The position numbers were made by a program, and so were the translations under genes. Shown in pieces: positions 7,376 to 13,453 of a DNA stretch of 64,000 bases; position 1 is the first letter of the stretch; each line of letters starts with the position of its first letter. Below the pieces are notes generated by a model that saw only the letters and a list, made by a program, of their open reading frames with translations, was not told where the DNA came from and made no database searches. Origin of the DNA: a virus; the IMG/VR virus record IMGVR_UViG_3300014838_000019, positions 1-64,000 of that record, one strand, 5' to 3'.

Positions 7376-7460
7376 GCCGCTGTGGTGTAACTGGAAGCCA
7401 CACAAGTTTGAGAGACTTGTGCCGTAAGGCGTGGAGGTTCAAATCCTCTCAGCGGCACCA
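7376..7460 (+). tRNA. tRNA-Leu(GAG)
   Basis: Anticodon arm CAAGT-TTGAGAG-ACTTG, long variable arm, CCA; close paralog of tRNA-Leu(CAG). Confidence 0.95.
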
Positions 7461-7467
7461 TTTTATC

Positions 7468-7785
7468 ATGAAAAACATTGAAGGTCTCGTCGTATCCGCC
7501 AAGTTGTTCTGCGTATTTGCTGGAACTAGCTTGCTCACTCTCCAAACTGGATTAGGTAGTTTAGCTCAATCAGATAAACCCGCCACCAATATCCAGTGGG
7601 CAATGGTTGTCGGTGGAAGTCTCGGTACGGGGCTTACGGCGGCTGGGGCTTTCTTGTCAAATGCGTTTGGAAACTACATGAATAACGTTAATATCAATGG
7701 AAATCCAATCACTTCTCAGACGGGAAGTATAAATCCTCTATTGACAGAAGTCAAAAAGGATGCTACAGTAAAGCCAGTTCTTTGA
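7468..7785 (+). CDS. Small membrane protein (2 TM; holin-like topology possible)
   Basis: ATG after the tRNA; two hydrophobic segments. Confidence 0.55.
   Translation: MKNIEGLVVSAKLFCVFAGTSLLTLQTGLGSLAQSDKPATNIQWAMVVGGSLGTGLTAAGAFLSNAFGNYMNNVNINGNPITSQTGSINPLLTEVKKDATVKPVL
7741..7769 (+). promoter_or_regulatory. sigma70-type promoter for the RNase P RNA
   Basis: TTGACA-N17-TACAGT with extended TG, ~20 nt upstream of P1. Confidence 0.7.
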
Positions 7786-7788
7786 GAT

Positions 7789-8135
7789 TTTGTCGTAAGC
7801 GACTCTACGCTGGGGAGAAATCCTTAGAGGAAGTTCGCCGCTGCACAGCAGATGATTGGGAGAATTTGGTTACAATAGGATTGGTCAAGTCGTGAAGTCC
7901 GAAAATCAATCAGCAGAACCTTAATCACAACTGATTGACCCTTGCAACCATTTCGTTATTACCACAAATTAGCAGCAATCCTAAATAGGTCAAGTCTAGT
8001 GCTGGACGTTACTAAGACCGAGGTTGGAGCAGTCTCCTTTAACGGGGGACCAGTTGAAAGACTGAGAAAAATGTAGAGATAGACCATAACGGCGGCTAAA
8101 ACATGAGCTATAAACTCATGGGTGCGAACGACAAT
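7789..8135 (+). ncRNA. rnpB: RNase P RNA (type-A-like catalytic domain, divergent S-domain)
   Basis: P1 TGTCGT/ACGACA; P2 CTCTAC(7803)/GTAGAG(8073); P3 GAAA hairpin; P4 GAGGAAGTTCGCCG(7827)/AACGGCGGCTA(8088) with bulged U; P5 CTGC/GCAG+CAA; P6 CAGC/GCTG; P15 with L15 GGT; P16 GGTC/GACC; AGAAAAATG at J18/2. Confidence 0.87.
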
Positions 8136-8216
8136 TTTTAAAAGTATGGGGAACGTCGAAAGACGCACTAGTCTCCATCAATATGTCATCTAAAAAATGA
8201 TGATGACAAAATTTAT

Positions 8217-8278
8217 GCCCGTGGTCGGATTGGGTTGCTGCGATACCACCGACATATTTGAGCAGAACATGGGCATCA
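8217..8278 (+). ncRNA. Candidate tRNA-like mini RNA
   Basis: 7-bp acceptor-like stem GCCCGTG/CATGGGC + ATCA, enclosing a GTCGG...CCGAC hairpin; no D- or T-arm. Confidence 0.4.
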
Positions 8279-8282
8279 TTAT

Positions 8283-8360
8283 GGGGCCGTAGCACAATTG
8301 GTAGTGCAGCACGTTCGCAACGTGAAGGTTTTGGGCGTTCAACTCGCCTCGGCTCCACCA
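8283..8360 (+). tRNA. tRNA-Ala(CGC)
   Basis: GGGGCCG acceptor with G3:U70, anticodon loop TTCGCAA, CCA. Confidence 0.93.
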
Positions 8361-8367
8361 TCATAAC

Positions 8368-8410
8368 AAAAAGAGAGGCGACTGAAAAGTCGCCTCTCTC
8401 TTTTTTTTTT
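8368..8410. terminator. Bidirectional intrinsic terminator
   Basis: A-tract + GAGAGGCGACT-GAAA-AGTCGCCTCTC + T-tract, between convergent transcription units. Confidence 0.9.
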
Positions 8411-12228: not shown

Positions 12229-12304
12229 GGGGCATTAGCTCAGTCAGTAGAGCGTCTGCTTTGCAAGCAGAAGGTGCCGGGAGCAAAGCCCGGATGCTCC
12301 ACCA
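12229..12304 (+). tRNA. tRNA-Ala(TGC) with atypical T-loop
   Basis: Anticodon loop TTTGCAA, G3:U70, T-arm CCGGG-AGCAAAG-CCCGG, CCA. Confidence 0.92.
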
Positions 12305-13375: not shown

Positions 13376-13453
13376 TGCGGGCTAGGCAGTTCTGGTGAAC
13401 TCCTTTGTCTCATAAGCAAATCTAGAAAAGTTCAATTCTTTTGCCCGCTACCA
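13376..13453 (+). tRNA. tRNA-Met(CAT), initiator-like 1:72 mismatch
   Basis: Anticodon loop CTCATAA, T1:T72 mismatch, CCA; lacks the three G:C anticodon-stem pairs. Confidence 0.85.

Follow-up and report, generated by a model that had tools for sequence, protein, structure and literature searches.

A candidate catalytic-domain-only RNase P RNA of type A in the tRNA island of a tailed phage

The window analyzed here is a 64,000-nucleotide (nt) stretch of DNA, the first part of the 75.8-kb IMG/VR virus record IMGVR_UViG_3300014838_000019 (CheckV completeness, 21%). At positions 7787 to 8134 of its plus strand lies a gene for a structured RNA. We read this RNA, with a probability of roughly 0.78, as a homologue of bacterial type-A ribonuclease P (RNase P) RNA that consists of the catalytic domain (C-domain) only, is transcribed with tRNA-Ala(CGC), and would remove the 5' leaders of phage tRNAs. 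The window codes for a large terminase subunit, a portal protein, a baseplate wedge protein, tail fibres, and an SbcC-like nuclease. Because terminase, portal, baseplate wedge, and tail fibre genes are encoded, the source virus is a tailed phage; it is probably a large one. The first 15 kb of the window form a tRNA island, where 15 tRNA genes lie on the plus strand, and the RNA gene sits in a gap poor in open reading frames (ORFs), between the end of the upstream ORF at 7785 and the start of tRNA-Ala(CGC) at 8283.

Covariation, element map, and RNA ends

Homologues were gathered by exact-motif scans of IMG/VR and JGI metagenomes, which yielded 16 distinct full-length homologues of 242 to 409 nt. 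The proposed structure, in which P4 and P6 are pseudoknots, was imposed on a MAFFT alignment (A2) of these sequences, and control structures were made by sliding the 3' partners by 1 to 3 columns. Under the proposed structure, 95.2% of the alignment cells pair, compared with 31 to 46% in the slid controls, and 0 of 500 shuffles equaled the observed pairing values. Changes on both sides of a pair were seen in 33 of the 65 pairs, both pseudoknots included. Covariation is heavy in P1, P3, P16, P17, and the two hairpins at the P18 position, and the compensatory changes in P4 run from GC to AU and from CG to GC. The first probes held P2 fixed; a later scan that left P2 free gave 12 P2 types and 12 P4 types among 17 distinct combinations, all of them complementary and all with the bulged U of P4 retained. 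The P2 of one such locus, L176, was read by eye (TTAGAC with GTCTA). The fold energy of the single sequence is unremarkable (z = -1.06 on the plus strand and -2.03 on the minus strand), so support for the structure comes from the comparison between homologues and not from thermodynamics. Judged by that comparison, positions 7790 to 8134 of the plus strand are a genuine structured RNA gene. Its elements are as follows.

7787-8134, plus strand: putative mature mini RNase P RNA, ~345 nt from P1 to P1 (P1 covariation and RNA contig ends)
7790-7801, plus strand: P1 5' strand (7790-7796, pairing with 8128-8134) and a short extension, GCG (7799-7801, pairing with 8123-8125)
7803-7808, plus strand: P2 5' strand, CTCTAC (pairs with 8073-8078)
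7810-7827, plus strand: P3 hairpin (both-side changes in 5 of 8 pairs)
7827-7840, plus strand: CR-I, GAGGAA followed by the P4 5' strand AGUUCGCCG (gap-free alignment to the Rfam consensus GAGGAAAGUCCGGg)
7832-7840/8090-8097, plus strand: P4 pseudoknot of 3 base pairs (bp), a bulged U, and 5 bp, CGCCG/CGGCG (covariation)
7841-7844/7972-7975, plus strand: P5 (GC to CG in three copies, CG to UA in one)
7846-7850/8000-8004, plus strand: P6 pseudoknot (CG to AU or UA)
7852-7970, plus strand: P7 stub (7852-7853/7968-7969 and 7857-7859/7962-7964), junction strands GGGAG and CGUUAUUA, and a copy-specific long hairpin (7863-7953)
7972-7988, plus strand: P5 3' strand GCAG, J5/15 CAA, P15 5' strand UCC, and L15 5' side UAAAUAG (CR-IV)
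7979-8028, plus strand: P15-P17 region
7988-7991/8016-8019, plus strand: P16 (both-side changes in 4 of 4 pairs)
7994-7996/8005-8007, plus strand: P17, whose loop carries the P6 3' strand (both-side changes in 2 of 3 pairs)
8022-8024, plus strand: L15 3' side with GGU (47 of 48 positions matched across copies)
8026-8028, plus strand: P15 3' strand
8032-8050, plus strand: P18a hairpin, at the P18 position (both-side changes in 5 of 6 pairs)
8051-8064, plus strand: P18b hairpin, at the P18 position (both-side changes in 3 of 3 pairs)
8065-8072, plus strand: J18/2, AGAAAAAU
8073-8078, plus strand: P2 3' strand, GUAGAG
up to 8097, plus strand: J2/4 (AUAGACCAUAA), then the P4 3' strand CGGCGGCU (CR-V)
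8102-8120, plus strand: additional hairpin, between P4 and P1 (the alignment shows compensatory changes)
8123-8134, plus strand: P1 3' strand (P1 covariation)

Both sides have changed in 6 of the 7 pairs of P1, and P3 ranges from 18 to ~80 nt across the copies. The CR-IV stretch reads GCAG-CAA-UCC-UAAAUAGG at 7972 to 7989, and the two hairpins at the P18 position have loops of 7 and 6 nt. The extra hairpin between P4 and P1 is present in the window copy and in L003, L005, L009, L011, L028, and L037, is missing from the short copies, and has no counterpart in the Rfam type-A family, RF00010. An earlier sequence-only reading of this DNA had placed the elements of the catalytic domain (P1-P6, P15-P17, GGU, and J18/2), the two hairpins at the P18 position, and the extra hairpin by eye; all were verified in the sequence, and the hairpins show both-side or compensatory changes.

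Part of the RNA stretch is contained in 21 RNA runs from peat, permafrost, and soil, and four runs from four studies were compared with the window. Peat metatranscriptome contigs from three studies span 7788 to 8133, 7789 to 8132, and 7787 to 8132, all within 2 nt of the predicted ends of P1. Contigs from another run extend through the downstream spacer to 8244 and 8276 and are precursor-like. Two contigs from different studies carry head-to-tail joints, 8132 to 7787 and 8132 to 7789, with at most one shared letter. No such joint occurs in the phage DNA as assembled, so the molecules that bear the joints are RNA. The joints reflect either a circular form or template switching by reverse transcriptase on an abundant RNA in which P1 keeps the two ends together. 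Circular isoforms, that is, head-to-tail joined molecules, have been reported for bacterial RNase P RNA (bioRxiv 10.1101/2025.06.30.662392); the phage joints differ in that they come from assembled contigs only, for which template switching is possible. Neither RtcB (PF01139) nor an RNA ligase (PF09414) was found in the source record, which is fragmentary. Contig depths and the low or absent cover of flanking coding DNA are unusable for ranking expression.

The P2-free scan added 30 viral loci from IMG/VR (L151-L180), some of them on contigs of 100 to 354 kb, and the putative mini RNase P RNA family is widespread in large phages. These additional loci are more distant members with other P2 and P4 sequences and a distance from CR-I to L15 of 104 to 203 nt. 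Genome contigs scanned with the J18/2-P2-J2/4 motif gave no identified host or prophage copy; their three matches lack all other elements and were dismissed as chance, as were about half of the 29 motif matches in metagenomes. A blastn search of positions 7400 to 8400 against the INPHARED phage collection gave no match.

Relation to bacterial type-A RNase P RNA

E. coli M1 RNA, encoded by rnpB, is a type-A RNase P RNA of 377 nt (RF00010). For the comparison, the RF00010 consensus and its structure line were set against E. coli rnpB and matched to the phage RNA in gap-free segments anchored on the helices. The order of elements in the phage RNA is that of RF00010 throughout: P1, P2, P3, GAGGAA, P4, P5, J5/7 with P6, the slot of the specificity domain (S-domain), P5', CAA, and P15, then AAAUAG, P16, P17 with P6' in its loop, P16', GGU, P15', the hairpin or hairpins, AGAuAAAU, P2', ACAGAA, P4', UA, and P1'. 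Strand lengths are also those of RF00010, with 3 bp, a U, and 5 bp in P4, 4 nt in P5, and 8 nt in J5/7. Across the copies, the phage RNAs match 112 of 112 conserved Rfam positions in J18/2, 77 of 80 in the P5 3' strand and J5/15, and 70 of 112 on the 5' side of L15, where the window copy has the identical AAAUAGG. J2/4 is ACAGAA in most relatives. About 33 of the 36 unpaired, highly conserved core positions of RF00010 are identical in the window copy.

Thus the phage RNA has the features that mark type A: a bulged-U P4 pseudoknot preceded by GAGGAA, CR-IV, CR-V with J18/2, the L15 GGU, and P16/P17 with the P6 pseudoknot. Like bacterial type-A RNA, it has the whole C-domain, the 3 + 5 bp geometry of P4, and a P6 formed between J5/7 and the P17 loop. 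It differs in lacking P8-P14, CR-II, and CR-III, in having two hairpins in place of the GNRA-type P18, in being encoded in a phage tRNA island, and in falling below any reportable RF00010 score. The window RNA therefore falls short of the Rfam family on two defining features, as it has no S-domain and does not reach the model score. Moreover, five of the eight P4 pairs are swapped in the phage RNA (CGCCG/CGGCG). The mismatches in CR-I and CR-V fall at P4 positions that are compensated on the opposite strand; because the covariance model treats P4 as single-stranded consensus, these compensated mismatches lower its score.

A sister RNA links the two groups. A covariance model, R1, was built from the 3' halves of the phage RNAs only. 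R1 was run on 80 viral loci with the canonical CR-V 15-mer. Its single match, L056, runs from end to end in register (22.4 bits, E = 0.04 over 1.27 Mb). RF00010 matches the same locus with 64.8 bits (E = 2.1e-19), below its gathering score of 100 bits, covering the whole model and skipping the S-domain and P18. Since it is matched by both RF00010 and R1, L056 bridges the phage RNA and bacterial rnpB. This sister (L056:3884-4149, minus strand, on an 84-kb IMG/VR contig) is a 266-nt RNA that also lacks the S-domain and shares with the window RNA the GCA linker, a P18 region of two hairpins, and the layout of J18/2. It differs in its canonical P4 (AAGUCCGG/CCGGCUU), in a reduced P16/P17, and in having tRNAs abutting both ends. 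The surrounding L056:2900-13620 holds 27 tRNA genes in ~11 kb, with the RNA between tRNA-Gly(GCC) and tRNA-Thr(UGU) at spacers of ~1 nt.

These comparisons bear on whether an unrelated structured RNA has come to resemble the RNase P core by convergence. That covariance models fail in both directions would fit such an origin; the identity of ~33 of 36 unpaired core positions, the identical strand lengths of P4, P5, and J5/7, and an intermediate recognized by RF00010 argue against it and make convergence scarcely credible. The window RNA is almost certainly homologous to bacterial type-A RNase P RNA, a judgment that follows from the sequence comparison. Covariation, the helix-anchored motifs, and the L056 bridge agree with the earlier proposal of a phage homologue of RNase P RNA whose type-A catalytic domain is intact. 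That proposal had looked to covariance models and to covariation as checks, and these divided: no Rfam model matches the window copy, whereas P2 and P4 covary abundantly and RF00010 recognizes L056.

Several observations weigh against this assignment and the role built on it. A cmscan of the whole window with Rfam reported only tRNAs at the gathering score. With positions 7400 to 8400 of the window and 380 to 760 of L001, a 242-nt copy (L001:451-692, minus strand), no RNase P family appeared even at E<=10 in a scan that covered all 4227 Rfam families, those of RNase P included. R1 in turn has no significant match to rnpB of E. coli or of three metagenome-assembled genomes (best on-target score with filters off, 2.8 bits). 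The link between R1 and L056 is marginal alone, as its E value of 0.04 has a rough calibration and the 80 loci were preselected by a CR-V motif that partly matches R1. J2/4 of the window copy is CCAUAA (4 of 6 positions), while most relatives and bacteria have ACAGAA. The RNA evidence consists of assembled contigs, from which neither strand nor level nor exact ends can be read. No rnpA (PF00825) was found in the source record, in agreement with the earlier reading of the window, or in four related records, and a protein partner is thus not seen; these five records are fragmentary (9 to 30% complete), so the absence says little. Catalysis by the RNA is inferred.

Two further results concern the Rfam models. 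RF00010 run on the whole virus record gave no first-look candidate, the 100-bit gathering score not being reached, and cmscan of the window and L001 gave no match in the RNase P clan, the type-T model RF02357 included. The archaeal type-T RNase P RNA of the Thermoproteaceae (RF02357) is likewise diminutive; it was missed by the Rfam models of its time and had to be given a covariance model of its own (Chan, Brown and Lowe 2012, PMC3579882). Type-T belongs to an archaeal lineage with an archaeal protein set, whereas the phage RNA has the bacterial type-A hallmarks P6, P16/P17, and the L15 GGU. Because the Rfam models miss the phage family as they missed type-T, a dedicated covariance model is needed.

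The vacant specificity-domain slot

Where the S-domain belongs, the window RNA has only the P7 stub and one hairpin. P8-P14, CR-II, and CR-III were not found in the window RNA, in line with the sequence-only reading, which had found no clear P7-P11 cruciform and no CR-II/CR-III motifs there. The 2-bp P7a covaries (AU, CG, UA). Otherwise the copies have in common only GGGAG on the 5' side of the slot and CGUUAAnACCAC on its 3' side. The slot is 35 to 161 nt long, and its inserts are unrelated between copies: the shortest copies (242 nt) hold a hairpin of 4 to 5 bp, and the long copies hold 70 to 160 nt that are mutually unrelated. Metatranscriptome variants from the same habitat have the same C-domain with other slot cassettes, of 73 and 102 nt.

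In the window copy the insert, 7863 to 7953, is a long imperfect hairpin. The three nested stems described earlier at 7866 to 7950 do pair (8 of 9, 6 of 6, and 6 of 6 positions complementary), yet the insert is not a conserved alternative domain, and the description of the S-domain as remodelled was not supported. Because the inserts vary from 35 to 161 nt and share nothing beyond the flanks, the slot tolerates anything, and the S-domain is lost and not rebuilt. "Lost" fits better than "remodelled." One relative, L002 (11295-11453, minus strand), carries in its slot a same-strand ORF of 52 amino acids with a CPKC...CPDC pair, zinc-ribbon-like; it could represent a small gene that entered the RNA or an ORF that arose by chance.

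The P18 position has changed as well. In bacterial RNase P RNA, P18 docks on P8 of the S-domain. A single P18 with a GNRA-type loop was not found in the window RNA, which has the two hairpins there instead. In an engineered E. coli C-domain RNA (Eco CP RPR), a P6-type interaction likely underlies efficiency, and P18 is dispensable once the S-domain has been removed (Mao et al. 2018, PMC5839562). Both this construct and the phage RNA are type-A C-domains without an S-domain, and the phage RNA keeps a covarying P6 and has dropped the canonical P18. The pattern of what the phage kept and lost is therefore the dependence seen in the engineered E. coli C-domain (PMC5839562). The phage RNA differs from the construct in being a natural product of selection, in its closure by a P7 stub and hairpin, and in its rewritten P4.

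Transcription unit, neighboring tRNAs, and proposed role

The remaining features of the unit surround the RNA.

7741-7769, plus strand: sigma-70-type promoter, TTGACA, 17-nt spacer, and TACAGT, with TG before the -10 hexamer (consensus scan, 10 of 12 matches)
8135-8282, plus strand: structured spacer with three hairpins, from the putative ribozyme to the tRNA (fold z = -2.69)
8283-8360, plus strand: tRNA-Ala(CGC), CCA encoded, in the same transcription unit
8372-8408, plus strand: intrinsic terminator, a 12-bp stem followed by a T run

The consensus scan recovered the promoter that had been proposed from the sequence. Most relatives have TTGACA-N16/17-TAnnnT at the same relative place, with a different sequence between the hexamers. 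Almost all loci of sufficient length have tRNA-Leu(GAG), the RNA, and tRNA-Ala(CGC or GGC) in that order on the same strand, and a same-strand tRNA-Ala(CGC or GGC) lies downstream of the RNA in ~12 of 16 loci. Conservation of this kind speaks to a further possibility, that the RNA is a piece of host rnpB, acquired along with the tRNA island, that has no function and is drifting. Such a passenger could account for the lost S-domain, the hypervariable slot, and the absence of an Rfam match. It is already contradicted by the compensatory changes that have kept every helix across dozens of divergent phage contigs; together with the conserved promoter position, the conserved synteny, and the discrete RNA species in metatranscriptomes, these make it exceedingly improbable.

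The tRNAs themselves are mostly ordinary. CCA is encoded in all 15 tRNAs of the window, matching the retained L15 GGU, and 14 of the 15 have a canonical T-loop. For this reason there is no sign that the tRNAs call for the altered substrate rules that the sequence-only reading had suggested. The idea that phage tRNAs with deviant elbows need a special enzyme was rejected, the only aberrant T-loop being that of tRNA-Ala(UGC) (12229-12304; AGCAAAG instead of GTTCRAN). The tRNA callers differ on three genes: 1439-1513 was reported by Rfam only (30.9 bits), and Arg(CCT) at 1627-1702 and Met(CAT) at 13376-13453 were reported by ARAGORN only.

The reading that we prefer proposes the following. The sigma-70-type promoter would drive a unit made of the ~345-nt RNA, the structured spacer, and tRNA-Ala(CGC), ending at the intrinsic terminator. 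The RNA retains P1-P6, P15-P17, the bulged-U P4, J5/15, the L15 GGU, J18/2, and J2/4, with the S-domain replaced by a short P7 stub and one hairpin free in length and sequence and the canonical P18 replaced by two other hairpins. During infection, it would strip the 5' leaders from the precursors of the phage's at least 15 tRNAs. The substrate would be held mainly through the acceptor stem, the N-1/J5/15 contact, and CCA-GGU pairing, not through the T-loop elbow. As no rnpA was seen in the five fragmentary records, the most likely cofactor is host RnpA. In L006, L034, and L037 the tRNA begins 3 to 5 nt past P1, so that a cut by RNase P would make the ribozyme's own 3' end; in many relatives, cleavage at the 5' boundary of the downstream tRNA would likewise free the 3' end of the ribozyme.

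A bolder form of this proposal is tentative, and we doubt it somewhat more than we favor it: a private phage RNase P without an S-domain, working with host RnpA or with no protein, recognizing only the acceptor and CCA, releasing its own 3' end, being at least partly circular in vivo, and using the slot as a free cassette site.

Two alternatives start from the same conserved parts. In the first, the RNA is an active catalyst of the RNase P type whose main substrates are acceptor-stem-like hairpins or phage mRNAs, for example, the adjacent spacer elements, bound through the CCA/acceptor end alone. The domain that reads the T-loop is indeed lost, a C-domain-only E. coli RNA cuts a model hairpin substrate (PMC5839562), the spacer at 8135 to 8282 forms stable hairpins, the first with a 7-bp acceptor-like stem, and a recurrent motif lies just downstream of the RNA in several relatives. 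We consider such retargeting unlikely, because the gene always lies within tRNA islands with a normal tRNA-Ala next to it, because 14 of 15 tRNAs are canonical and all carry CCA, and because the spacer sequence is not conserved among relatives. As observations in their own right, the acceptor-like stem of the first spacer hairpin (8146-8178) encloses a GAAA-capped hairpin, and a very weak tmRNA-like Rfam match lies at 8148-8180 (7.8 bits). The downstream motif of the relatives, GGCTGCGWAGGTGACGCCC, stands just past the ribozyme inside a stem-closed element ending in ...CACCA (L003:271-289; L005:1549-1567, minus strand; L017:183-201, minus strand; L029:6573-6591; L033:1599-1617, minus strand). 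It was not found in the window with three mismatches allowed, and the element may be another small structured or tRNA-like RNA.

The second alternative is a decoy, a catalytically dead RNA that binds host RnpA or pre-tRNAs and so shuts down or redirects host tRNA maturation. In bacterial RNase P RNA the region that contacts RnpA is P2/P3, J18/2, and J2/4. The same region is among the best-conserved parts of the phage RNA, and no phage rnpA was found, both of which would suit a sponge. However, conservation or covariation extends to the parts that serve to bind the substrate and carry out the reaction and not to bind protein (the bulged U, P4 geometry, J5/15, the L15 GGU, and P6), and a phage with at least 15 tRNA genes of its own would hurt itself by blocking RNase P, so a decoy is more improbable still than retargeting. 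Overall, a leader-removing RNase P RNA is more likely than the rival explanations, given that catalytic and substrate-binding elements are conserved, that the structure covaries, and that the gene lies among tRNAs.

RNase P RNA is generally viewed as a ribozyme universal to cells. A full-text literature search found no paper on phage- or virus-encoded RNase P RNA, and C-domain-only RNase P has so far been studied only through engineered deletions (PMC5839562). If the preferred reading is true, the catalytic domain alone is viable in vivo, and dozens of large-phage contigs carry a bacterial-type RNase P free of the S-domain. Should the bolder, private form also hold, a natural C-domain-only RNase P of bacterial type would suffice for tRNA maturation in cells. 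The family would further provide a small, diverse, and well-covarying sequence set for work on ribozyme structure and engineering, and tRNA 5' maturation would join the translation functions that large phages bring with them.

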